Origin: Candidatus Dormiibacterota bacterium
Lineage (GTDB): Bacteria > Chloroflexota > Dormibacteria > Aeolococcales > Aeolococcaceae
Assembly (NCBI GenBank): GCA_963709585.1
Contig: CAVPXI010000023.1
Coordinates: 197,310 to 261,309, forward strand
Direction of reading: 5' to 3'
Length of the DNA stretch: 64,000 bases
The notes under the pieces were generated by a model. It worked only from the letters and a program-made list of their open reading frames with translations. It ran no database searches and was not told where the DNA came from. Positions 1-62,526 of this stretch are shown piece by piece; the first letter of the stretch is position 1; the number at the start of each line of letters is the position of its first letter. Both the position numbers and the translations under genes were made by a program.

Positions 1-1
1 C

Positions 2-3000
2 TACGGCGGAGTGGTGGAGAAGTTCATCGGGGACGCCGTGATGGCCGTGTGGGGCGCGCCCGCTGCCCACGAAGACGATGCCGAGCGGGCCGTACGCGCT
101 GCGTTGGATCTGATCGAGGCGGTATCCGCGCTCGGTGGCGAGATCGGGGAGCTTGGGTTGCAGGCCCGGGCCGGGGTACTCACCGGCTCGGCCGCGGTCA
201 CGGTTGGCGCGGACACCCAGGGCATGGTCGCCGGCGACCTGGTCAACACTGCGTCGCGTATCCAAGCCGAGGCTAAGCCGGGCACGGTCCTCGTCGGCGA
301 CGCCACCCGAGGGGCGACTGAAGCGGCCGTGGTGTACGAGGACACCGGCGAGCATTCGCTCAGAGGGAAGGCTGAGCCGATACGCCTGTGGCGAGCGCGT
401 CGTGTCGTGGCCATGCGTGGTGGCGCGCAGAAATCTGAGGGGCTCGAGGCGCCGTTCGTGGGTCGCGACCGCGAGCTGCGCCTCATCAAGGATCTCTTCC
501 ACGCCAGTGCGGAACAACACAAAGCCCACCTCGTCTCCGTTGTGGGAATCGCGGGGATCGGCAAGTCGCGGCTCTGCTGGGAGTTCTTCAAGTACATCGA
601 CGGCATCGCTGAAGGAGTCTTTACGCATCGTGGCCGCTGCCTCGCCTACGGCGAGGGCGTGACGTATTGGGCACTGGCGGAGATGGTCCGGATGCGCGCA
701 CGAATCACAGAGGCAGAGGACCCCGCCTCTGCGCTTGCGAAGCTGCAAGCCTGCGTTGCCGAGTTTGTGCCCGATCCAGATGAGCGGCGCTGGGTGGAGC
801 CGCGGTTGGCTCAACTCCTGGCTCTCGAGGAGCGCGCTCCCCAGGAACGCGAAGACCTCTTCAGCGCCTGGCGACTTTTCTTCGAACGACTCGCTGACAG
901 GGAGCCGACGGTGCTGGTATTCGAGGACATGCAGTGGGCGGACACCTCGCTGCTCGAGTTCATCGAATACCTGCTGGAGTGGTCCCGTAACCACGCGCTC
1001 TTCGTGGTGACCGCTGCTCGGCCGGAGCTGGTCGATCGGCACCCGACCTGGGGAGCGGGCAAGCGCAACTTCACCGCGGTCTTCCTCGAGCCTCTCGCGG
1101 CGACCGCGATGGAACAGCTGCTCGACGGGCTGGTGCCTGGATTGCCCGACGAGCTCCGGGAGCAGATCCTGCAACGGGCGGAAGGGGTCCCTCTGTACGC
1201 AGTGGAAACGGTGCGCATGCTGCTCGATCGCGGCCTGCTCGAGCGCGCCGGAAGCGTGTATCGGCTGACGGGGGCCGTCGAGGACCTGGAGGTACCCCAA
1301 ACGCACGGAACTCATTGCAGCTCGCCTTGACGGACTGCGTCCGGAGGCGCGGCGGGTGCTCCAGGACGCGGCTGTTCTCGGCAAGACCTTCACGTTGAAC
1401 TCGTTGGCCGCCGTGACTGGGCTGCCGCCGGTGGACCTCCAGGCGATGCTCACCGAGCTGGTGCGCAAGGAGGTGCTCTCAGTGCAGGCGGATCCACGCT
1501 CGCCGGAGCGGGGCCAATACGGGTTCCTGCAGGACCTGGTCAAACGGGTGGCCTACGAGACGCTCTCCAAGCGGGATCGGAAAGAAAGGCATCTCGCCGT
1601 GGCTGCCTGGTACGAGAACTCCTGGGGCGGCGAGGAGAGCGACGTCGTCGAGGTGGTCGCTGCGCACTACCTCGAGGCGTACAACCTCGCTCCGCAGGAT
1701 CCCGATGCCGACCGGGTGAAGGACCGCGCCGCGGACGTGCTCTTCCAAGCTGGCGAGCGCGCAGCGTCCCTGGCTGCAAACTCGGAGGCAGAGCGCTACT
1801 TCGAGCAAGCAGCCCGCCTGGTGCCGGACTCGGCACGGCAGGCCGAGATGCACGAACGCGCTGGTCAGATGGCGGCGCGCTCAGGCCGCAACGCGGTTGC
1901 CATCTCGCACCTGGAACGAGCCATCACGCTGTACGAGAGCGAGAACCTGCCCCACCCGGCGGCACGCGCGCTGTCTCGTTTGGGTCTGGTGGAGGCCGTG
2001 AGCGGGCAGTTGGACCGATCGGTGCAGCGGATGGAGCGCGCGTTCGCGGTTCTGGCCAACGACCCGCCGGATGAGGATCTTGCCACGCTCGCGGTCCGGC
2101 TCGGATCGGTGCTGTATTTCAATGGCGATACCGATACCGCGAGCAAGCGTATCGAGGCCGCGCTCGACATCGCCGAGAAGCTGGGGTTACCCGAGGTCCT
2201 CTCCCAAGCCTTGAACGTTAAGGCCATTCTCGCTATGCAACGCCGGCACGGCGAGGAGGCGATGGCTCTCTTCGCTCATGCGTTGAAGCTTGGGCTGGAC
2301 AATGACCTGCCCACAGCCACGATTCGCGCTCATTTCAATCTCGCAGACCTGCTGTGCCAGCGGGACCGCTACGTTGAGGCCCTCGATCATTATCGCAGCG
2401 CGCTTGCCCTGTCGAGGAAGATCGGAGACAGATCATTCGAGCGCGGCACGATCTGCGACCTTGCGCTGAACCTCGTACGAGTGGGCGAATGGGATGAGGC
2501 CGCCGAATTTGCCGCAACCATCGCCGAAGAGGACATGCGCAGCGCGCCGACGGACGTCATCTCGCTACTTGTTGTCGGTGAGATGTACGCCGATCGGGGC
2601 CAGATTGTGGAGGTCGAGAACCTTCTGTCCTGGACCGCGCAACTTGCGTCGTCAGATGATTGGCAGGCGCGCACTTCTTTCGTCTCAGGTCGCGCGTGCC
2701 TCCTGCGTGCCCAGGGCAGATACCGCGAGGCGCTCGCGGAGGCCGAGGAGGCGATCAAGGTGGCTGTCGAATTCGGCGGGGTGGGACATCAGGCCGTCAA
2801 GGCCGGATTTCGGACGGCGTGCAACTCTGCGTTCGCCCTGGGCGACACAGCAAAGATGGATGAACTCCTCGCCTTCGTCGACCGTCTTGGTCCAGGCGAA
2901 CGGCCACCGTATCTGCATGCTCAAGCGACGCGGTTTCACGCCCGACTAGGCGACACGGAAGCCATTGAACCGTCGTTCATCGAGGCCGAGGAGAGCTTCG

Positions 3001-3191
3001 CTGAGCTGGGGATGCCTTTTTGGCTCGCGGTAGTTCGATTTGAGCACGCGGAATGGCTCTCGACAAATGGCAGGCAGGCTGAGGCCACCCCGATGATGAC
3101 CCTTGCGACGCAAGAGTTCGAGCGCCTTGAGGCGCGCCCGTGGCTCGACCGCGCGAGGCAATCAGCCCCTGGGGCGGTCACGGTTTCTTGA
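2..3191 (+). CDS. Class III adenylate/guanylate cyclase - STAND (AAA_16) ATPase - TPR protein, copy 1 (5' truncated by window; 1-nt frameshift ~1305)
   Basis: Cyclase motifs YGGVVEKFIGDAVMAVWG and GDLVNTASR; Walker A GIAGIGKSRL; Walker B VFEDMQWAD. ORFs 11..1330 and 1356..3191 join (EVPQT/LIAARLDGL), colinear with the paralog at 6053. Helical TPR-like C-terminus. Confidence 0.9.
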
Positions 3192-3251
3192 TTGCCGGCT
3201 GTCATGCGTTCCCCTTCGGGAGAGCCGCCAATACTGACTGGCGGCGGCGGC

Positions 3252-5027
3252 TCACTCCGCGGTGGGCTGACCGAACGCCAGCGAGGCCGACGGATGTGTC
3301 CGCGCCAGCCGCGCCTGTGCCCTGCCCAGCGCTGAGGGTGACAGGGAGGCGACGGTCATCGCTTCGACAAAGTCGGATCCGTTGATACGGTAGAGCGTGC
3401 AGGGCGCAATCGCTTTCACAGTCGCCGTGCGCGGACGGTGCCCGAGCAGACCGATCTCACCGAAGTAGTTGGGTGGTCCCAACACGCCGAGCGTATGTTC
3501 CGCGCCGGCCTCGCCGGCCGCGAGCACCTCGACCTCGCCGGCTGTGAGCACGAAGAAGTCATCGGCCTCGGCGCCCTCGCGAATCAGCACCGCGCCAGCT
3601 TCGACCGTCTCCTCGACTGCTGATCTCGCCAGGCGCTCCAATGCCGCTCGGGTCGCGCCGGCGAAGATGTCGAGGCTCTGCAGGGCCGTGACACGTGGCT
3701 CGATCGCGGCCAGTTCGCGCTGCGCTCTTGTGTCGAGTGCCCGGATCCATGGATACGCAGCAACACTCAACGCCGGAATCGCCAATCCCATGATCAAGAG
3801 CGTCGTGTTCAGCCCGAGGCTGCCGAGGAGGATGGGCATGAGCAATGCGCCCAGCGAGATTGCCGCCAGCACGAGGGCGAAGAAAACCCCGAAGACTCGC
3901 GCGACGACGTCCGGACTCACGAGCCGCTGCAATGCCGTGATCGCCAGCACGTCGACGATGATCGTCCCCCCACCTCGGACCACCTCCAGGAGAAATGCGA
4001 TCCATGGTGAATGCACGATCGTCAGGAGCGCAGTTGGCAGGCAAAACACCGCCATCCCGATGACGATGATCGCTCCGAGGCGACGGGCAGCGGCGATGCG
4101 ATTCATGAATCCTGCCATCACGATGCCGCCGACGCCGAGCGCCGCGAGCAGGTATCCGTAGCCGGTGCTGCCGGTGCCGAGCTGGTCCTTGCTCACCACG
4201 ACGAAGAGCACCGTGTCAGTCCCGTACACGAAGCTCGCGAGGATGCTGAAACCGGCGAGCAGGGTCACGCTGGGGGACGAAACGAAGGCGCGCATCCCGG
4301 CCGCCATCTGCTTGAGTGGCCCGACCGCCCCGCCCTCGGTGATGTCCGACGGACGGCTGCGTATGCGCATGCGGCTCACCACCAGCGCGGAGAACCCGAA
4401 GGTGGCCGCATTGATGGCGAACACCACGGCCGGCGGACTGAACAGCAGCAACACGCCCGCGATTGCCGGGCCGACGATGATGGAGAGGTTCTCCACGGCA
4501 GACTGCGCGCTGTTGGCGGCGGCGAGATGTTCCTCCCCGACGACTGCTGGAGTGGTCGCGCGTGCCGCTGGGTCGTATGAGGACGTGCTCACCGACGTCA
4601 GAGCGGCAACCGCAATCGCGAGGAGGACGGGCCCATTCAGCGCCGCAACCACGGCCAGAGCCGTCTGGAAGCAGAGCGCGAGCGTATCGAGAGTCACCAT
4701 GAGACGCACGCGTTCCATGCGGTCAGCGACCAGCCCACCGATGGGACTGGTGACGAGTGCGGTGAGAAAGCGCGTCATTGAGGCCGCGGCAACCCACGCA
4801 GGGGAGTGGGTGGCGTTGAAGACGAACACGACCAGGGCGACGTTGTATGCCCACGATCCGCTCATCGAGATGGTGAGCCCGCTGAAGAGTAGGCGGTAGT
4901 CGCGGTTGGCGAACAGCGAGCGATACCCAACTCGCGGTGTCCTCTCGCCGAGCGTGCGTCCGGTGAGCCGCGCAACCACACGGCGCCTGATCGAGGGCGG
5001 CTTCGGCTCCGTGGCGAGTTCCGTCAT
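3252..5027 (-). CDS. MFS transporter fused to a C-terminal cyclic-nucleotide-binding domain
   Basis: About 12 hydrophobic segments, MFS motif A GGLVADRMERVR; C-terminal LIREGAEADDFFVLTAGEVEV and phosphate-binding cassette FGEIGLLGHRPRTATVKA. Confidence 0.9.
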   Translation of the reverse strand: MTELATEPKPPSIRRRVVARLTGRTLGERTPRVGYRSLFANRDYRLLFSGLTISMSGSWAYNVALVVFVFNATHSPAWVAAASMTRFLTALVTSPIGGLVADRMERVRLMVTLDTLALCFQTALAVVAALNGPVLLAIAVAALTSVSTSSYDPAARATTPAVVGEEHLAAANSAQSAVENLSIIVGPAIAGVLLLFSPPAVVFAINAATFGFSALVVSRMRIRSRPSDITEGGAVGPLKQMAAGMRAFVSSPSVTLLAGFSILASFVYGTDTVLFVVVSKDQLGTGSTGYGYLLAALGVGGIVMAGFMNRIAAARRLGAIIVIGMAVFCLPTALLTIVHSPWIAFLLEVVRGGGTIIVDVLAITALQRLVSPDVVARVFGVFFALVLAAISLGALLMPILLGSLGLNTTLLIMGLAIPALSVAAYPWIRALDTRAQRELAAIEPRVTALQSLDIFAGATRAALERLARSAVEETVEAGAVLIREGAEADDFFVLTAGEVEVLAAGEAGAEHTLGVLGPPNYFGEIGLLGHRPRTATVKAIAPCTLYRINGSDFVEAMTVASLSPSALGRAQARLARTHPSASLAFGQPTAE

Positions 5028-5110
5028 CGGATGTCGCCGGGCTCCTTGATACCACCGATGGCGGTGCGATTCACCCGCGGAAGCGTACTCGCCGCGATAC
5101 TGTCCGCACC

Positions 5111-5998
5111 ATGCGGTTGCGTCTCTGCGGTACGCGAGGGTCCACGCCGGCGCCTGGCATCGATTTCGCCCGTTATGGTGGCCAGACGTCGTGCGTGGCT
5201 GTCATCACGGATGACGGTGAGTGCCGGCTCATCCTCGACGCAGGCACCGGCCTGCGCCGACTGCCGGCCGCGTTGCACGGCAAGCCGTTCACAGGCAGCA
5301 TGCTGCTCACCCATCTGCACTGGGACCATACGCATGGGTTGCCCTTCTGCCCCTCGGTCGACAACCCGGACGCGCACACAACGCTGTACATCCCGGAGCA
5401 GCCGGGTGGTGACGCCGAGGAGATCCTTGCCCGGGCGATGTCGCCACCGCATTTCCCCATACGCCCTCGCGAGATGCGCGGATCCTGGGAGTTCAAGCAT
5501 CTCGCGCCCGGCGAACATCGCATCGAGGGCTTCGATGTCCTCGCGCTGGAGATTCCACACAAAGGGGGGCGAACGTTCGGATACCGGGTTTCTGACGGTC
5601 GGAGTGCCTTCGCCTACATGCCGGACCACGCGCCGGCCTCGCTCGGTCCCGGGCCTGAGCAGTTCGGGCCGTATCACGAGACGGCAGTGCGCTTGACGCT
5701 AGGCGTCGACATGCTACTGCACGATTCGCAATATACGAGCGAAGAATTCCCCGCGCGGGCGCATTTCGGCCACTCCAGCATCGATTACGCCGTGGGGCTT
5801 GCCGTACACGCTGGAGCGCGGCGCTTGGTGCTCTTCCATCACGACCCCTGGCGATCGGACGAGCAACTCGATAGCATCGTCACCCGCTGGTCCGACGCCT
5901 CGCTGCCGGTCACTGCGGCGATCGAGTGGGACATTCTTGACGTCGGCGTTGCCTCCGATGCGCGGCCCCGAGAGGCGCCTGACCGGTCGTCGGCATAA
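5111..5998 (+). CDS. MBL-fold metallo-hydrolase, RNase Z/ElaC-like branch (putative phosphodiesterase)
   Basis: N-terminal CGTRGSTPAPG, LILDAGTG, THLHWDHTHG (HxHxDH), HDSQY, FGHSS, LFHHDP. Confidence 0.85.
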   Translation: MRLRLCGTRGSTPAPGIDFARYGGQTSCVAVITDDGECRLILDAGTGLRRLPAALHGKPFTGSMLLTHLHWDHTHGLPFCPSVDNPDAHTTLYIPEQPGGDAEEILARAMSPPHFPIRPREMRGSWEFKHLAPGEHRIEGFDVLALEIPHKGGRTFGYRVSDGRSAFAYMPDHAPASLGPGPEQFGPYHETAVRLTLGVDMLLHDSQYTSEEFPARAHFGHSSIDYAVGLAVHAGARRLVLFHHDPWRSDEQLDSIVTRWSDASLPVTAAIEWDILDVGVASDARPREAPDRSSA

Positions 5999-6052
5999 GG
6001 CGGGGATCGCCCTGGTTGAGTGCAGCCCGCTGAGAAACGTACCCTTGGCGGC

Positions 6053-9000
6053 GTGATCTGCCCGGCCTGTGGCGCTGAGAATCGGCCCGGCATGCGCTTC
6101 TGCGGCCAGTGCGGGGGCTCGCTGGCGATCCTCTGTCGAGGGTGCGGAGCAACCAACGACGCCAATCAGCTGTTTTGCGGCCAGTGTGGGGCGAAGCTCG
6201 CAGCGGATCCGGCTGCGAGCAATCCATCGCTGAACACACCCGCGACGAGCAGCCGTCCAGCGGGCGAGCCGTCGCGGCCGGCCTCGGAGCGGCGTCACAT
6301 CACCGTGCTCTTCGCGGACCTGGTCGGCTTCACATCGCTGTCAGAGCAACGCGATGCGGAGGATGTCCGCGAGCTGTTGAGTGACTACTTCGCACTGGCG
6401 CGAACGGTCATCGGTCGCTACGGCGGGCGTATCGAGAAGTTCATCGGCGATGCGGTGATGGCCGTGTGGGGCGTCCCGGCCATCCAGGAGAACGACGCAG
6501 AGCGTGCGGTACGAGCAGCCCTCGAGCTCGTGGACGAGGTATCCGCATTCGGTGAGCGGGCGGGGATACCCGGGCTCCGCGCCCGGGCAGGCGTACTCAC
6601 CGGCGAAGCTGCGGTCAACCTCGACGCCGACGACGAGGCCATGGTCGCGGGCGACCTCGTCAACACCGCGAGCAGAGTGCAGTCGGTTGCCGAGCCGGGC
6701 ATCGTCTTTGTCGGCGACAGCACTCGGAGCGCGAGCGAGGCCGCCATCGAGTATGTGGACGCGGGGAGCCATCAGCTCAAGGGCAAACCTGACCCGATGC
6801 GACTCTGGCGCGCGGCTCGGGTGATCGCGGGGGCGGGTGGGGCGCTGCGTCCCACCGGTCTCGAGCCGCCCTTTGTTGGGCGGGAGCGAGAGCTGCGGCT
6901 GCTCAAAGAGTTCCTCCACGCCACGTCAGCGGAGGGTAGGGCACGGCTGCTCTCGGTGGTTGGCCTCGCAGGGGTGGGCAAGTCAAGGCTGGCCTGGGAG
7001 TTTTTCAAGTACATCGACGGGCTCACCGAGACCATCTGGTATCAACGCGGCCGGTGCCTGGCCTACGGCGAAGGTGTGGCGTTCTGGGCGCTGACCGAGA
7101 TGGTCCGGATGAGAACCGGGATTGTGGAGAACGAGCCGCCGGACACGGCGAAACAGAAATTGCGTCTGAGCGTCGAGGAGTTCATTCACGACGAGGAGGA
7201 GCGCGCCTGGGTGGAGCCACGTGTGGCCCATCTTCTCGGGCTCGAGGAGCGCGCCGGCGCCGACCCCCGGGATCTGTACGCGGCCTGGCGGGTCTTCTTT
7301 GAGCGTATGGCGGCGCAGCACACGACGCTGCTCATCTTCGAGGACCTGCAGTGGGCGGACAGCGGACTCCTCGACTTCATCGAGTACCTGCTCGAATGGT
7401 CGCGCAGTTCGCCGATCATGGTGGTCGCCCTCGCTCGTCCCGAACTCGGTGAACGGCGTCCGGGGTGGGGTACCGGCAAGCGAGGCCTCACGTCGCTCTT
7501 TCTCGAACCACTATCGCCTGATGCGATGGGGCAGCTGCTCACAGGCCTGGTGCCAGGTCTGCCTCAGGATCTGCGCGCGCTCATCCTCGATCGGGCCGCC
7601 GGCGTCCCCCTGTATGCGGTTGAGACAGTGCGTATGCTCATCGACCGGGGGCTGCTCGTCGAGGATGGCGGCACGTACCGCGCCAAGGGGTCGTTGGAGG
7701 CGCTCGAGGTTCCTGAGAGCCTCCATGCGCTGATCGCAGCGCGCCACGACAGCCTCGCGCCGAGTGAGCGATCGTTGTTGCAGGACGCGGCGGTCCTGGG
7801 CAAGTCGTTCACCGTCGCCGCGCTCAGCGCGGTGACCAACATCCCGGAATCCGACGTCGAGGCGGTGCTCACCTCGCTGGTTGGCAAGGACCTGCTCGCG
7901 ATACAGGCGGACCCGCGCTCGCCCGAGCGCGGCCAGTACGTCTTCGTCCAGGACCTGATCCGCAGCGTCGCCCATGGGACGCTGGCGCGGCGCGAGCGCA
8001 AGTTGCGTCACCTGTCGGCGGCGACGTACCTGGCCGGCTCCCGGATTGACGAGGAGGAGATTGCCGAGGTCGTCGCGGCCCATCTCGTCGAGGCGTACGA
8101 CGCCGAACCCGCTGCAGCCGACGCTCCAGAGATTCGCGATCGGGCGCGGCTTGCGCTCGTGCGCGCCGCGGAGCACGCAGACTCGCTCGGCGGCGCTGCG
8201 TCGGCTCAGCGCTATTACGAGCATGCGCTCGAGCTCAGCGGCGATGATGAGACGCGAGCCGACCTCAATCAGAAGGCTGGACTAGCTGCCCGGTTGCAGG
8301 GCCACGGAACGCAGGCGAGAGCGCATTTCGAAACGGCGCAGGATCTGTACGCCGCGACAGGGCGGCCGCTTGGCCGGGCGACGGCGCTCAGCGAGCTCGG
8401 TAAGTGCGACTACGACGATGGCAACCTCGTCGGCGCGTTACAACGCTCGCAGGACGCGCTGGCCGCCATCCCCGAGAGCGGGACCGGTGCAGAGCATCAG
8501 GCGACGCTGGCGTACATCGAGGCAAGGCTCGCGAGGTTCATGTACTTCAGCAGCGATTACGTCTCGGCCCTCCCATACGTCGAGCACGCGCTGCAGGTTG
8601 CCGAGACCGAAGGCTTGTTGGATGTGTTCTGTCTGGCCCTCGATACCAAGGGCGCAATTCTCGCTGCGCGCGGACGTCGCGCCGAGGCTGACGTGCTCAT
8701 CCGCGGGGCACTCGCCGTCGCACTCGAACACGATCTCACCGAGCGCGCCTGCTCGTCGTGCGCCAATCTGGCCTCGACCCTCGAGGAGGAAGACCGGATC
8801 GAGCCTGCACTCGAGATGTACGAGCAGGCCGAGGTGCTCATGCAGCGGCTGGGAGATCGTCCTAATGCTGTCGGCGCCAGGCTGAACCGCGTCCAGGGGC
8901 TTCTCGAGCTCGGCCGATGGGATGAGGTAGAGGCGATGTTCGCCGATTATCTCGAGGCCGACGCTGATGAGCTCGGATCTCGCCTGTGGCCGGGCGCGGT

Positions 9001-9650
9001 CGCGGCCAACGCCACTTGGCTGTTCGTTTACCGCGGCGACGCAGCAGCCGGGCGCCGCCTGGTCGAGCAAAGCGCGCCCCTGGTCGCACATTCGCAGCTG
9101 GAGATCCGCGCCCAGCATGATGCCGCTCGCGCCGCGGTCGCGAACGCCGACGGTGATCACGTCCTGGCGCTTGCGACGGCGGAGTCAACGCTTCGAGCCT
9201 GTATCGATGAGTCCTTCCCGGTGGGGATGAGGTTAGCTCTCATCGAGGCGGTGGAGGCGGCCTTCTTGCTCGGCCAGGCTTCCAAGGTCGTGGAGTTGCT
9301 GCAGCTGGTGCGAGACAACTTTCGGCCCGGACGCCAGCCGTCGGTTGACGCGCATATTCTCCGATGGGAGGCGCGCATGGCAGCCGCGCTCGATGACAAT
9401 GACCGGGCCGGCGGCAAGTTCACCGCCGCGATCGACAAGCTTCGCCCGGTTGCAGCGTCCTTTCTGGCTTGCGGTAACCCGCTGCGAACTTGGAGAGTGG
9501 TTGGTTGCTCAGGGTCGCCAAGCAGACGCCCAGGAGCAGTTGGCCTCTGCTCGCGCAACGTTCGAGCAGCTGCGTGCAATCCCCTGGGTGCAACGAGCGC
9601 GCATCGCGGGGCAGCGGGTGGGGACAGAACCGGCGAGTCTGGCTCAATAG
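6053..9650 (+). CDS. Double zinc ribbon - class III cyclase - STAND ATPase - TPR protein, copy 2 (1-nt frameshift ~9438)
   Basis: GTG start MICPACG; four CxxCG knuckles; TVLFADLVGFT, EKFIGDAVM, GDLVNTASR; GLAGVGKSRL; IFEDLQWAD. The C-terminus continues in the alternate frame (FARLQRPFWLAVTRCELGEWL, stop 9650), matching the end of copy 1. Confidence 0.9.
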
Positions 9651-18307: not shown

Positions 18308-19794
18308 TCAGATGCCGGTCCGGTGGGTCCAATCTCCCGCGAGCATCGTGGCCGCGACCGGCATGGTTCGCAGGGCGCTCGGTTCAGCGCTGAACGGGTC
18401 GCCGTCGAGCACCATGATGTCGGCAGGGTCGCCGGCGCGGAGCGTCGCGTCACCGCGTCCCGGGGGCATCGACGCGGCGAGCGCCTCGGCGACGGTGATC
18501 TCCTGCTCGGGATGCCAGCGAGCACGCTCATCTCGGGTGCGGTGAACAGCGGCGCCGACGGCCAACCACGGGTCAAGCGGCGCAACCGGCGCGTCGGAGC
18601 CGAAGACGAGGACCGCGCCGGCATCGAGGAGCGAGCGGAGCGGGAACGCGCGCCGCGAGCGTTCGGCCCAGTAGCGGTCAGCGACGTCTCGATCGTCGAG
18701 AGCATGCTCGGGTTGGACGCTCGCGATCACTCCCAACTGCGCGAAGCGGCCCAGGTCCGCGTCGTCGAGCAATTGCGCGTGCTCGATGCTGCCGCGCGCA
18801 CCGGTTTGCGCGAACGCTTGCAACGCGATGGCGTTGGCACGATCCCCGATGGCGTGGATCGCGCATTCGAAGCCGGCGTCCCTGGCGCGCAGCATGAGTC
18901 GCGAAAGCTCGCGTGCCGTTACGAGGAGAACGCCATTCTCCTCGGCAGCGCCGCGGACGCGGGATACGCGTCGTAACAGAACGCGGTGCGTGTGTTCAGC
19001 GAGCCGTCGGTGATGATCTTCAGAGGCCCAGCGATGAGCAGCCCGCCGGTGCCGCCGATGACGGCCCCGGTGTGCAGGTGTTGCGCAATGGCGTCGTCGA
19101 GTTGCTCCGGCCACACGGCGCTGGCGACGCGCAGCGATCGATTGCCCTCCGTCATCCGGCGCCGCCACGCCTCGAGCGACCACGGCTTCTCCATGTCCAC
19201 GATGCCGACAACGCCTCGAGCAGCCGCGGCCCGCGACGCGGCGTGGCACCACGCATCGGCGACCTCATCGGCAACCATCCCGACCTGACCGATGACCCCC
19301 ATCGCCGCGTCCTCGCGCAGCAGCCCGGTCGTGTGGCCCGCGTGTCCGAACCGGCGGAGCGCGGCAGTGCTGAGCCACGCGCTGTGCAGATCGGCACTGA
19401 TGAGCACCACCGGCAGCTCGCCGCACATCTCGTCCAGCACCTCGCGATGCGGCGCATCCGGCCAGAGCGCATCGCGAAATCCGTATCCGACCACGGGCAT
19501 GTCGAGATCCTGTTGGGAGCTGGCGATGTGGGTCGCAAGCAAGCGCGCCGCTGCGGCCGCTGTGTCGACACCGGAAAGATCGAGACGCGCCCTGATCTGC
19601 GCCCACTGGTCGAAGTGCACATGGCGGTCCCAGAGCCCGGGCAGCAGAAACCGGCCATCGACATCGACCACCTCTGCCGTCTGCGCTCGGCCCTCGATGT
19701 CGCCGATTTCAGCCACATGCCCGTCGGCAACCAGGACGTCCTGGGGTGGCGCTTGCGGCGCGAGGCGCGCCTGACGGAACAGAACGGTCGTCAA
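18308..19794 (-). CDS. Amidohydrolase 3 (YtcJ-like) metal-dependent hydrolase (frameshift ~18962)
   Basis: LLPGLWDRHVH, DLHSAWLS, KIITDGSLNTRTA; then IHAIGDRA, IEHAQ, SVQP, FGSDAPV. TTG start estimated. Confidence 0.82.
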
Positions 19795-59369: not shown

Positions 59370-60656
59370 TCAGGCGCCGGCGACCGACGTGTTGGTTCGC
59401 TCGAAGCGGACCACCGGTCCGAGCGTGAAAAAGGTCGCTGTCGCAAGCAGCACCCCGAGGATGACGAGGCCGTCGATGCCGAGCAGGTGCGCGGCAAAGC
59501 CGCCGATGACCGCACCGAGCGCGCCGCCCCCGGCCAAAGCCACCGTATAGAAGGACATGAGCGCCGATCGATCCGCGCTCAGGCTCTCGGAGCAGTCGGC
59601 AAGGTAGGTCACCGCGGCGGGACCGAAGCCGGCAAGCCAGACGATGCCGAGGACGAGGAACGGCGCGATCAGGAGCATGCCGAGGAACGGCAGGTGGTTG
59701 ATGGCGAGCAGCGCGATCATCGTCAGCCAGGCCCCGGGCACCGCTCTGCGCATCACGACTGCCGGACCGAGACGGGTCACGAAGGGCGTCCAGAGCAGGA
59801 TGCCGATCAGGAAGACGGCGATCCAGGCGATCAGGAACAGGCCGATGACGCGCACGTCGAAGTGATGCATCAGCGACTGGGACGCCACCGCTTGATGGCG
59901 AAGCAGCGAGGGCAGATTGGCGACAAAGGCGCCGATGAGCGCGAACGACATGATCCATGCGGGGAGGAACGTGCGCATCGGTCCCGGACCGACTGCGGCC
60001 TGGAAGACGACGCGCAACGAGTGCACCGGGAGGGGAGGGACGCGTGGGACGAAAACGAGGCAGACGATTGCCGCGCAGGCGTACAACCCCGCGAGCAGCA
60101 CGAACGCCCCGCGGTGCAGGCCGAAGTACGCGGCCGAGCCCAGCCCAAACCCGCCCGCATACCCGATGAGCGTCGACGCCTCGAACGCACCGCTGGCGCC
60201 GGCGCGGCGGCGACGATCGCCGGACGTTGCGGCGGCGACCGTGCCCAAAGCGACCGGGACGAATGCGGCCGCACCCAGGCCCTCGAGCAGGCGTGCCCCG
60301 CCAAGCTCCGCTGGACGCACACCAAGCGCGACCAGCAACACCGCCACGACGCAGATGACCGGACCCGCCACCAGGAAGCGGCGCCGGCCGAACCGATCCG
60401 CGTAGCGCGCCAGGATCGGCGCGAACACCATCTCGGTCAGAGCTTGAGCCGCACCCACCAGACCGATGTCGATTCCGCTGGGTCTCCCGTGGGCCAGGTC
60501 GCTGAGCCGGAACTGGACGGCGACCCCAACTCCCACCGCCCCGACTCGAAGCAGACCACTGGCAACGAGCAGCGCTCCAATCGCTCGCGAGGCCGTGTGG
60601 CGCAGCTCGTCGTCGCCGGGTGCCTCGAGCACGCCGGCAACCTGCTGGTCGGTCAC
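59370..60656 (-). CDS. MFS transporter
   Basis: GTG 60656 MTDQQV; ARYADRFGRRR motif A; about 12 TM segments. Only the C-terminal part of the 1035-aa ORF is coding. Confidence 0.82.
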   Translation of the reverse strand: MTDQQVAGVLEAPGDDELRHTASRAIGALLVASGLLRVGAVGVGVAVQFRLSDLAHGRPSGIDIGLVGAAQALTEMVFAPILARYADRFGRRRFLVAGPVICVVAVLLVALGVRPAELGGARLLEGLGAAAFVPVALGTVAAATSGDRRRRAGASGAFEASTLIGYAGGFGLGSAAYFGLHRGAFVLLAGLYACAAIVCLVFVPRVPPLPVHSLRVVFQAAVGPGPMRTFLPAWIMSFALIGAFVANLPSLLRHQAVASQSLMHHFDVRVIGLFLIAWIAVFLIGILLWTPFVTRLGPAVVMRRAVPGAWLTMIALLAINHLPFLGMLLIAPFLVLGIVWLAGFGPAAVTYLADCSESLSADRSALMSFYTVALAGGGALGAVIGGFAAHLLGIDGLVILGVLLATATFFTLGPVVRFERTNTSVAGA

Positions 60657-60869
60657 GCCTCTAGGGTATCCCGCCACGTGACATTGATCGAAACATGCGA
60701 GCAACCCCTTTGGCTCGTACAATGGGATTGTCTGACGTCGTGAACGACCGGCCACCGCGGGCCGGCCCCGACTGGATCTCGAGACGCTGTGGGTCTCGCC
60801 CCGGTCCCCTTCCCGTCGTGAGGCATTCCAAGCAGGGCGCATCGCGCCCGACCTCCGAGGTTCCATCCC

Positions 60870-62411
60870 ATCGGCATCGAGATCCTCGCCCTGGCAGGGC
60901 TGGTGATTGTTGCGGCCGCGTTTGCGGCTGCAGCGGTTGTCTACGCGCGCAGAACCGTGGCGCAAAGCCGGGTCACGCACGACGCGGACGCTGAACGCCG
61001 TCTCGAACAGGTCCGGGCGATCGAGCAGGAAGCAAAATCGGTGCTGCTCGCCGCAAAGGAGGAGGCCGCACGCCGCAGGGACGAGGCCGAAGCGGAGGTT
61101 CGTGAGCGCCGGGCGGAGATCGCCCGGCTCGAGCAGCGGACCAACCAGCGCGAGGAGGGGCTCGAGCGCCGGCTCCGCGAGCTGGACTTCAACGAGCAAC
61201 GGCTGACCCGTCGCGATGCGGAGCTCGAGACCCTCCGCCAGACCGTCGAGGACGAGCGCAGCCTGATCACCAGGGAGCTCGAGCGGGTCGCCGCGCTCTC
61301 TGAGCAGGAGGCGCGGGTCGAGGTGGTGCGGAGCGTCGAGGGCGAGTTGGTTCCCGAGATCGCCGAACGGATCCGCGAGGCCGAGGTCCAGGTCCGTGAG
61401 GAGGCGGCCGAGCGCAGCCGCGAGATTCTCATCGCGGCGATGCAGCGCCAGGCGTCCGAGCAGAGCGGCGAGGCGTCGGTCACGGTCGTCCACCTCCCCT
61501 CGGACGAGCTCAAGGGCCGGATCATCGGGCGGGAAGGACGCAACATCCGCGCGCTCGAGGCCGCGACCGGCGTCGACGTCATCGTCGATGACACACCCGA
61601 GGCGATCGTGCTCAGCTCCTTCGACCCGGTGCGCCGCGAGGTCGCCCGGGCCACCCTCGAACGCCTCTTCAGCGACGGCCGCATCCATCCCGCGCGCATC
61701 GAGGAGATGGTCGTCAAGGCTCGCAACGAGCTCGCCCAGCAGATCAAGCACGAGGGCGAGCAGGCCTGCCAGGACATCGGGCTCACCAACGTCCATCCCG
61801 AGCTTGCCCGGTTGCTCGGCACGCTGCGTTACCGCAGCTCCTACGGCCACAACGTGCTCTCGCACAGCCAGGACACCGCCGCGCTCGCCGGGATGATCGC
61901 CGCGGAGATCGGGTTCGACGAGCAGATTGCCAAGGAGGCGGCGCTCTTCCACGACATCGGCAAGGCCGTCGAACACGACGTGGACGGCCCCCACGCGATC
62001 ATCGGTGGCGAGATCCTGGCGCGCCTCGGCCGTCCTGCCGCGGTCGTCCAGGCGGTACGCTCGCATCACTACGACGAGGAGCCGCGCTCGCCGGCCGCGG
62101 CCATCCTGATGACCGCCGACGCCATCAGCGCGGCACGACCGGGGGCGCGCCGGGAGTTGCTCGCCTCGACGATCAAGCGGCTCGAACGCATCGAGGCGAT
62201 CTCCAATGAGTTCCGCGGCGTCGAGCGCAGCTTTGCCGTGCTCGCCGGGAAGGAGCTTCGAGTTCTCGTCAAACCGGACGAGATCAGCGATGACGAGGCA
62301 CAGATCATGGCCCGCCAGATCGCCAAACGCCTCCATGGCGAGGGCAGCTACAGCGGCCGGGTCAAGGTGGTCGTCCTTCGCGAAACCCGCAGCGTGGAGT
62401 ACGCGAAGTAA
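60870..62411 (+). CDS. rny: Ribonuclease Y (probable ATC start; first canonical start GTG 60903)
   Basis: N-terminal TM, coiled coil, KH KGRIIGREGRNIR, HD domain HDIGKA, DAISAARPGAR. Confidence 0.95.
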   Translation: MGIEILALAGLVIVAAAFAAAAVVYARRTVAQSRVTHDADAERRLEQVRAIEQEAKSVLLAAKEEAARRRDEAEAEVRERRAEIARLEQRTNQREEGLERRLRELDFNEQRLTRRDAELETLRQTVEDERSLITRELERVAALSEQEARVEVVRSVEGELVPEIAERIREAEVQVREEAAERSREILIAAMQRQASEQSGEASVTVVHLPSDELKGRIIGREGRNIRALEAATGVDVIVDDTPEAIVLSSFDPVRREVARATLERLFSDGRIHPARIEEMVVKARNELAQQIKHEGEQACQDIGLTNVHPELARLLGTLRYRSSYGHNVLSHSQDTAALAGMIAAEIGFDEQIAKEAALFHDIGKAVEHDVDGPHAIIGGEILARLGRPAAVVQAVRSHHYDEEPRSPAAAILMTADAISAARPGARRELLASTIKRLERIEAISNEFRGVERSFAVLAGKELRVLVKPDEISDDEAQIMARQIAKRLHGEGSYSGRVKVVVLRETRSVEYAK

Positions 62412-62526
62412 CGATTGCATCGCGCCCGCCGGTGCTCGGCGCAGCGAGAGGCGACAATCGCGGCCGATAATGACCACGTCCTACTCATCGCCGCCCTCAC
62501 ATCCCGCTCCCGGGGTGACACCTCCA

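Follow-up and report, generated by a model that had tools for sequence, protein, structure and literature searches.

STAND-type cyclases, a cyclic-nucleotide-binding transporter, and a metallo-beta-lactamase-fold hydrolase form a putative signaling module on a Dormibacterota chromosome

The bacterial effectors of cyclic AMP (cAMP) that have been studied are mostly transcription factors, together with an acetyltransferase and ion channels. Here, we describe four neighboring chromosomal genes that suggest a secondary transporter as a further type of effector. They encode two class III nucleotidyl cyclases built into STAND (signal transduction ATPases with numerous domains) proteins, named cyc1 and cyc2, a transporter of the major facilitator superfamily (MFS) with a C-terminal cyclic nucleotide monophosphate (cNMP)-binding domain (P0001), and a metallo-beta-lactamase (MBL)-fold hydrolase (P0002). 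The genes occupy positions 1-9650 of the window, i.e. the whole stretch of 64,000 nucleotides that was analyzed (C23:197310-261309; G+C content about 66%). It derives from a soil bacterium of the phylum Dormibacterota, whose metagenome-assembled genome comprises 3.5 Mb on 24 contigs and is 88.8% complete; the source records of its nearest relatives at the protein level carry the name Candidatus Dormiibacterota.

For the cyclases, the closest described proteins are the mycobacterial Rv0386, Rv1358, and Rv2488c as well as those modeled by TIGR03903 ('TOMM system kinase/cyclase fusion protein'), in which a class III cyclase domain is likewise followed by an AAA_16/STAND nucleoside triphosphatase (NTPase) domain and helical repeats. 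TIGR03903 aligned with cyc2 over profile positions 264-971 (E = 4e-63; 213.7 bits, under the cut-off of 705.75). The window cyclases differ from these proteins in having neither a LuxR-type helix-turn-helix (HTH) domain nor a kinase domain, and carry an N-terminal double zinc ribbon instead. Rv0386 presumably has Gln and Asn as substrate-specifying residues, whereas the window cyclases have Lys and Met.

For the transporter, a membrane transport domain combined with a C-terminal cNMP-binding domain is found in the channels MloK1 and SthK, both of which were among the PDB matches of the P0001 tail (E ~1e-9). These are tetrameric K+ channels, whereas P0001 is a secondary MFS carrier, so that gating would have to act on the alternating-access cycle. 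In the passages of a 2023 review that deal with fused MFS transporters (PMC10710835, citing Willson et al. 2019), transporters with C-terminal regulatory domains, including a cyclic-nucleotide-binding domain (MFS-CNBD), appear as a catalogued class with no reported experiment, and these passages mention neither a linkage to cyclase or MBL genes nor a cyclase-MFS-cNMP fusion. This agrees with the initial annotation of the locus, a note made from the DNA sequence alone, which knew of no characterized MFS carrier regulated in this way. Likewise, neither this module nor a characterized MFS carrier under cNMP control was the subject of any paper returned by our literature search. Mycobacterium tuberculosis Rv3239c and Rv3728 are presumably also MFS proteins with a cNMP-binding domain; one paper names both, only as MFS efflux pumps.

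The hydrolase has described counterparts in the atypical class-II phosphodiesterases Rv1339, Corynebacterium glutamicum CpdA, and Bacillus subtilis YhfI and in the phage enzyme Apyc1, with which P0002 shares the PF12706 fold, the [T/S]HxHxDH motif, and a length of about 250-300 aa. As far as the definition of the atypical class-II enzymes is set out in PMC9293780, it consists of PF12706 and this motif, and P0002 with its THLHWDH sequence falls within it. It differs from the described enzymes as a distinct subfamily: no sequence match to YhfI or Apyc1 among solved structures was found at E up to 1, unlike for a second PF12706 protein of the genome (C6:196080-196817), which is nearer to both and matches both by sequence. 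Finally, Pycsar systems also place a class III-like cyclase beside a cNMP-binding and membrane protein, and they share domain-level matches of the PADLOC models with the present locus. In contrast to Pycsar, the cyclase here lies inside a STAND switch, a full MFS carrier takes the place of the effector, the locus has its own hydrolase, and the genomic context is one of housekeeping genes. All parts are of known kinds; as judged by comparison, the new elements would be the recurrent linkage of three families, a fusion protein described below, and the assignment of a PF12706 subfamily to cNMP signaling.

We propose that the four genes constitute a chromosomal cNMP signaling module, in which the STAND cyclases would act as writers, the MFS-cNMP transporter as effector, and the PF12706 hydrolase as eraser; we give this reading a probability of about 0.65. 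The features concerned are the following:

1-3191, + strand: cyc1, zinc ribbon-class III cyclase-AAA_16 STAND NTPase-tetratricopeptide repeats (TPR), starting about 350 nt before the window (Pfam, translation)
~20-379, ~452-985, and 1356-3191, + strand: cyclase domain, AAA_16 domain, and TPR part of cyc1 within the window (Pfam)
3252-5027, - strand: P0001, 591 aa, MFS_3/DHA3-like transporter with C-terminal cNMP-binding domain (Pfam, hydropathy, motif)
~3873-4889, 4704-4736, and 3357-3611, - strand: MFS core, motif A-like GLVADRMERVR, and cNMP-binding domain of P0001
3417-3464, - strand: phosphate-binding cassette FGEIGLLGHRPRTATV, residues 522-537 of P0001 (translation)
5028-5110, no strand: divergent MFS/MBL gap of 83 bp (sequence)
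5068-5090, - strand: conserved 23-nt block GAGTACGCTTCCGCGGGTGAATC upstream of the MFS-cNMP start (orthologue comparison)
5111-5998, + strand: P0002, 295 aa, PF12706 MBL-fold hydrolase (Pfam, model, gene context)
5309-5329, + strand: THLHWDH motif, residues 67-73 of P0002
6020-9650, + strand: cyc2, with its true stop at 9650 (Pfam, frames, orthologues, run contigs)
6059-6190, 6287-6790, and 6869-7426, + strand: double zinc ribbon (DZR), class III cyclase, and AAA_16 domains of cyc2, followed by TPR (Pfam)
6962-6985 and 7328-7360, + strand: Walker A GLAGVGKS and Walker B LLIFEDLQWAD of cyc2 (translation)

All four genes were recovered by Pfam searches at the places where the initial annotation had put two paralogous class III cyclase/STAND/TPR genes around a divergent pair, with the 83-bp gap that it had given. 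In both cyclases, the domain matches exceeded their cut-offs. Scores for cyc2 and cyc1 were 78.4 and 80.9 bits for Guanylate_cyc (PF00211; cut-off 21.9; the value for cyc1 refers to the whole domain in the genome search), 76.6 and 90.3 bits for AAA_16 (cut-off 32.6), and 34.4 and 89.7 bits for TPR_12 (cut-off 30.1). TPR_MalT stayed under its 45-bit cut-off in both proteins (32.4 and 43.6 bits). The N-terminal double zinc ribbon of cyc1 was read from the translation only and lies upstream of the window. The two proteins are 60% identical over the zinc ribbon, cyclase, and NTPase parts and 37% over the TPR part, a pattern expected if the paralogues share an output but sense different things.

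By their sequences, both proteins are class III nucleotidyl cyclases with a full catalytic set and a STAND NTPase-TPR architecture. Alignments with solved cyclases were used to map the catalytic positions, and the six residues D-K-D-M-N-R occur in cyc1, cyc2, and seven close paralogues of the genome. These include the metal-binding D100 and D144 and the transition-state residues N215 and R219 (numbering of cyc2), the same four being present in cyc1. The substrate-specifying position is occupied by Lys140 and the second one by Met208; among 89 related cyclase domains, Lys was found in 76 and Met in 49. The Lys position aligns with a Glu of 2w01 and a Lys of 6fht, the Met position with a Thr of CyaB (3r5g). 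In class III cyclases, Lys paired with Asp or Thr specifies ATP, and Glu paired with Cys, Ser, or Gly specifies GTP. Because of the Lys at the purine-specifying position, cAMP would be the most likely product, although the Met at the second position is unusual.

In the assembly, both cyclase genes are interrupted by frame breaks. The end at 9650 that the initial annotation assigned to cyc2 proved to be the true one; the frameshift that each gene carries in this assembly is a correction to that annotation. For cyc1, a single gene with a TTG start about 350 nt upstream of the window, the break lies at ~1301-1309 (net -2) and leaves two open reading frames (ORFs), at 2-1330 with Guanylate_cyc and AAA_16 and at 1356-3191 with TPR_12. 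For cyc2, a +1 break is located at ~9439, after which the printed ORF continues in the wrong frame to 9745. Orthologues in four related genomes (G002, G012, G009, and G021) are in frame at both places. Contigs of public sequencing runs (Logan) differed from the assembly at 1301-1309 by +G, +CT, and -1, all three covering runs being in frame, and lacked the extra base at 9439 (-1) in all four runs, which came from two studies; one of the Logan runs may be the source sample itself. A reading of the two genes as pseudogenes was rejected on account of these in-frame contigs. Both frameshifts are consensus errors of an assembly with scattered indel errors: the control genes rpoB, rpoC, and uvrA are unbroken, while NadE and another uvrA paralogue seem to be split. 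Given the in-frame orthologues and run contigs, both cyclases were taken as intact (~1180 and 1209 aa).

The transporter matched MFS_1 (98 bits) and MFS_3 (97.7 bits) over residues ~39-424 and cNMP_binding over residues 473-557 (77.2 bits; cut-off 27.5). Hydrophobic segments are restricted to residues ~60-430, suggesting a 12-transmembrane-type protein from hydropathy only, and the motif A-like GLVADRMERVR forms residues 98-108. The phosphate-binding cassette FGEIGLLGHRPRTATV, which the initial annotation had already recognized as intact, aligns with the cassettes of protein kinase A regulatory subunits (E = 3e-20). Across 62 family members with 30-49% identity, G523, G526, R533, and A535 of the cassette were invariant, and F522, E524, T534, and V537 were kept in at least 90%. 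None of the models of named MFS subfamilies, from which a substrate might be read, reached its cut-off (163.1 versus 319.6 for TIGR00900, 96.4 versus 324 for EntS, and likewise for the Tet(V) and Mef models). An exhaustive search for relatives of the transporter yielded 52,700 matches at E <= 0.001 and 933 clusters (50% identity) at E = 1e-30; the family was found mostly in Actinomycetota, Dormibacterota, and Chloroflexota.

The hydrolase begins 83 bp from the transporter gene and ends 21 nt before the start of cyc2 on the same strand; it is probably co-transcribed with cyc2. Lactamase_B_2 (PF12706) matched P0002 with 65.4 bits (cut-off 27), in agreement with the HxHxDH hydrolase noted initially. 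Ten residues (H68, H70, D72, H73, H150, D172, H173, H243, H244, and D245) are invariant among 30 homologues, and these include all metal-ligand His and Asp residues. The P0002 family occurs as a single copy in the genome, and its subfamily is common in Actinomycetota.

To judge the grouping of these genes across genomes, the background was derived with the same hidden Markov models as used for the loci: in the bacterium's own genome, stretches no more than 5 kb from a cyclase domain make up 5.2% of the sequence, and those no more than 3 kb from a cNMP-binding match make up 1.2%. Of the 24 other genomes of the genus, 19 contain an orthologue of the MFS-cNMP gene, as do at least 13 of the 16 genomes of the sister family; G027, G032, and G036, which are unpublished, are counted here. 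The MFS-cNMP gene is adjoined by one, two, or three cyclase-STAND genes in 15 of 17 loci from the genus and in 4 of 10 from the sister family. A search with a six-sequence alignment gave 80 species-representative MFS-cNMP loci, 49 of them with at least 5 kb on both flanks; some of their genomes are shared with the genus and sister-family set. A cyclase domain was located within 5 kb in 33 of these 49 well-flanked loci, i.e. in 24 of 25 from Dormibacterota with at least 70% identity, 3 of 5 from more distant Dormibacterota, 5 of 18 from Actinomycetota (8 of 18 within 10 kb), and the only one labeled Chloroflexi. The grouping of the genes thus exceeds chance.

The flanking cyclases are not the same genes throughout. 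They vary between genomes from one to three copies with 57-82% identity to cyc2, so that the association persists through turnover. When 66 MFS-cNMP proteins were arranged in a quickly computed maximum-likelihood tree, the adjacency of a cyclase required at least 6 changes and that of the hydrolase at least 5, with 13 and 16 rows, respectively, left unscored where flanks were too short. Furthermore, the best 150 representatives of the exhaustive search included P0365 (1176 aa), which combines CHASE2, cyclase, MFS_1, and cNMP_binding domains in one chain with an intact cassette; its 90% cluster has two members and was seen on seven contigs. A word-based search for further long fused relatives of P0001 returned none, which is weak evidence.

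A second set of 80 metagenome loci was picked by the hydrolase alone (52-90% identical to P0002). It contained a cNMP-binding domain in 53 loci, in 47 of them within 3 kb, and in 26 the cNMP-binding gene lies directly upstream of the hydrolase gene on the same strand (e.g. L147, with an 11-nt gap). A cyclase was found within 5 kb of the hydrolase in 34 loci and a complete MFS-cNMP gene in 12. Where at least 3 kb were available on both flanks, 13 of 15 loci had a cNMP-binding or cyclase gene, the two loci with neither being L142 and L205. Up to 3 kb from the hydrolase, cNMP domains numbered 1.91 per 10 kb, compared with 0.37 beyond 5 kb, and the density of matches around the hydrolase generally dropped fivefold or more beyond 5 kb. 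The genes occur in at least five orders, including (i) a REC-cyclase gene divergent from a pair of cNMP-protein and MBL genes (L147, L155); (ii) MFS-cNMP followed by MBL, facing a STAND-cyclase (L157, L164); and (iii) the order of the window (L136, L137). A check of neighborhood conservation, as the initial annotation had suggested, therefore revealed recurrent co-occurrence around both the transporter and the hydrolase, the absence of which that annotation had named as refuting its reading. The recurrence of the same partners in unrelated bacteria points to a transporter that would be switched directly by a second messenger. Since its family recurs beside cNMP-binding genes, which is the strongest argument, P0002 probably represents a separate PF12706 subfamily of cNMP phosphodiesterases, its hydrolytic role being read from gene context.

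What is observed are the architectures of the proteins, the intactness of their catalytic and ligand-binding residues, and a recurrent linkage that includes one fusion; the biochemical steps below are inferred, and so is the extent to which the module may be insulated from the rest of the cNMP pool of the cell. The diverged C-terminal TPR sensor of each cyclase would bind a ligand, upon which the AAA_16 NTPase would drive oligomerization. This would bring the N-terminal class III cyclase domains together into active homodimers, which would form cAMP or another cNMP. The messenger would then bind the C-terminal tail of the MFS_3 exporter, assumed to be cytoplasmic from the usual MFS topology, and allosterically change the rate of transport. 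Finally, the PF12706 hydrolase would clear the messenger and reset the system. Linkage, fusion, and motifs lend comparative support to the sensor-writer-eraser-effector circuit put forward in the initial annotation.

Several observations weigh against this proposal. The related genomes are non-independent samples, and 13 of the 18 well-flanked Actinomycetota loci had no cyclase within 5 kb. The hydrolase lies within 3 kb of the MFS gene in just 13 of the 49 well-flanked loci, and just 10 of 41 relatives yielded a member of its family, with no member in the 16 sister-family genomes. In 4 of the 10 genomes of the genus that have it (G014, G004, G019, and G022), the orthologue is located elsewhere, with no cyclase or cNMP-binding match within ~9 kb. 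With 19 cyclase-domain and 12-14 cNMP-binding matches in the genome, a diffusible messenger need not act locally. Met208 at the second specificity position of the cyclase fits neither the adenylyl Lys-Asp/Thr nor the guanylyl pattern. As for the hydrolase, the NCBIfam model NF041851 ('cyclic nucleotide-degrading phosphodiesterase') reached 32.6 bits against a cut-off of 400, among solved structures P0002 reached only ribonuclease (RNase) Z/ELAC1 by sequence (E ~1e-4), and it is barely similar to the second, more YhfI/Apyc1-like PF12706 protein of the genome (pairwise E = 0.003).

Possibly, the locus is merely a neighborhood of a cAMP regulon that arose by tandem expansion of cyclases and by cNMP-related genes drifting together, with transporter and hydrolase answering the whole-cell pool of a global messenger and no dedicated coupling among them. 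The number of cyclase and cNMP-binding domains in the genome and the unlinked hydrolase orthologues would fit such a scenario, and so would the way in which the MFS gene is flanked by cyclase paralogues in tandem, whose number varies from one to three and whose identity changes. Also, only 4 of the 19 cyclase matches of the genome are located within 5 kb of a cNMP-binding match, as found by comparing coordinates by hand. We nonetheless regard this explanation as improbable: P0365 holds writer and effector in one chain, Actinomycetota show the linkage again with different gene orders and cyclase types, and the enrichment over background is more than tenfold. The label 'self-contained' in the initial annotation goes beyond these data, given the 19 cyclase and 12-14 cNMP-binding domains of the genome and the hydrolase orthologues that lie elsewhere in 4 of 10 genomes of the genus.

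It is equally doubtful that P0002 is another phosphodiesterase of the RNase Z/PhnP branch, acting on RNA 3' ends or on 2',3'-cyclic or ribosyl cyclic phosphates, with an incidental place beside the MFS gene in this subclade. A Foldseek search with the predicted structure of P0002 (pLDDT 87.4) returned RNase Z/ELAC1 first and YhfI at rank 4 (6kns_D; E = 4.1e-12; TM-score 0.78 on the target); further fold neighbors were PhnP-type enzymes, which also ranked high, a Brucella MBL crystallized with AMP or GMP, and Apyc1 (rank 49-50). RNase Z/ELAC1 is thus the best match both by sequence and by fold, JGI labels homologues as 'phosphoribosyl 1,2-cyclic phosphodiesterase' or 'ribonuclease BN', and the missed NCBIfam phosphodiesterase cut-off and the unlinked copies in four genomes of the genus point the same way. 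On the other hand, the RNase Z equivalog TIGR02651 was itself far from its cut-off (44.9 versus 292.95), with only the C-terminal 60 residues aligned, and an incidental place does not agree with the 47 of 80 loci that have a cNMP-binding gene no more than 3 kb away, directly upstream in 26, or with the single copy of the family in the genome. The Apyc1 profile PF23023 matched none of 30 family members in our scan, yet precomputed annotation assigns it to 5 of 120 homologues. We favor the assignment to cNMP signaling. On a further, improbable reading, the carrier would export the cyclic nucleotide itself and be opened by it, as a self-gated overflow valve beside the hydrolase.

The genomic surroundings bear on a possible role in defense, which had been raised in the initial annotation. 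Upstream of cyc1, NadE, RsmI/TatD, KsgA, a further MFS carrier, a methyltransferase, and a DUF222 gene are found, the last directly upstream and with an HNH-like motif visible in its translation. On the 3' side, a methyltransferase and two Gfo/Idh/MocA oxidoreductases are followed by ThrRS, PheST, RuvB, Tgt, SecDF, NusA, IF-2, PNPase, RNase J, FtsK, and RecA. In an anti-phage system with the logic of Pycsar and Avs, the STAND-TPR part would sense a phage protein, the cyclase would make a cNMP alarm, and the cNMP-bound MFS protein would collapse the membrane potential and abort the infection, with the MBL keeping the background low and setting the threshold; these would be Avs-like immune sensors with a cyclase effector and an MFS leak, a defense architecture not yet described. 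The order of effector domain, NTPase, and TPR is that of Avs-type STAND sensors. Of the PADLOC Pycsar models, PycC matched the cyclase domain (E = 5e-19) and PycTIR matched the cNMP-binding domain (E = 2e-10), the module is absent from 5 of the 24 genomes of the genus, and the DUF222 gene with its HNH-like motif is adjacent. We consider this reading very improbable, since the PADLOC matches are at the level of shared domains and occur just as well on Crp regulators and other cNMP proteins, none of five tested MBLs matched any PADLOC model, the flanks (NadE, KsgA, ThrRS, PheST, RuvB, SecDF, IF-2, PNPase, RecA) are housekeeping genes, MFS motif A is retained in the transporter, whose family is large and has spread vertically, and neither ~13 cyclase-STAND paralogues per genome nor the Lys at the purine-specifying position fits Pycsar.

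The 83-bp gap between the divergent MFS and MBL genes contains the 23-nt block GAGTACGCTTCCGCGGGTGAATC, which is kept in 13 of 13 orthologous intergenic regions (84-224 nt in length) and occurs once in the genome when up to three mismatches are allowed. This block may serve as an operator or as part of a promoter. Directly next to the MBL start codon, another block, GATACTGTCCGCAC, is likewise kept. A search of the gap by eye for a Crp-type palindrome gave only GTGCGATTCAC, which was rejected because its spacing is wrong. Between positions 3100 and 6100, a scan for sigma-70-like promoters returned no site, and the two terminator-like sites found there lie inside genes and are within chance expectation.

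Additional observations were made on related loci. In the tree of MFS-cNMP proteins, one clade of Actinomycetota (Streptosporangiaceae and others, several with cyclase and MBL alongside) groups with the sister-family Dormibacterota (SH-aLRT 90, not starred), a hint of gene or module transfer between phyla. In two loci, from Dormibacteria (L074:11776-14078) and Streptosporangiaceae (L090:2155-4389), a GAF protein, an S8 subtilase, and a Crp-family regulator adjoin the MFS-cNMP gene, and the module may be larger in some lineages. AAA_16-(TPR)-LuxR HTH regulators adjoin the MBL gene in the unrelated loci L147:10865-13825 and L090:11526-14312; these are STAND switches with a DNA-binding output in place of the cyclase. 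At L165:18663-20534, a pyridoxal-dependent decarboxylase with a C-terminal cNMP-binding domain is encoded near MBL, cyclase-STAND, and MFS-cNMP genes. The genome of the window (G000) also harbors a second cNMP island (L219; C6:224000-236000), comprising a Crp-type regulator (cNMP_binding and HTH_Crp_2) and a DZR-cyclase-AAA_16 gene that is broken into two ORFs with an overlap; a stand-alone cNMP-binding protein of 141 aa is encoded divergently from this cyclase.

With respect to the assembly, further probable frame errors were detected in (i) NadE, which appears as overlapping CN_hydrolase and NAD_synthase ORFs (L218:393-2184); (ii) the second uvrA paralogue, which lies in two frames (C21:134381-137156); and (iii) positions 18308-19730 of the window, where the Amidohydro_3 match spans profile positions 227-469 only. 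The short contigs C2 (11131-12922) and C10 (32124-33904) both contain one and the same cyclase-STAND copy, on opposite strands and with equal scores, which suggests that a single locus was probably assembled twice. The rpoB gene terminates at the end of C15 and rpoC begins at the end of C16, each end holding a short piece of the other gene, and the two contigs probably abut or overlap at rpoBC. A 1035-aa ORF at 59370-62477 (- strand) of the window has MFS_1 at residues 666-961 as its sole Pfam match, its N-terminal 660 residues being without a match.

If the proposed module is correct, a secondary carrier switched directly by a cNMP would make transport one more of the fast outputs that this messenger controls at the post-translational level. 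A widespread PF12706 subfamily would be singled out as a candidate new cNMP phosphodiesterase, and the many orphan cyclase-STAND-TPR proteins of soil bacteria would gain a concrete candidate for their downstream partner.

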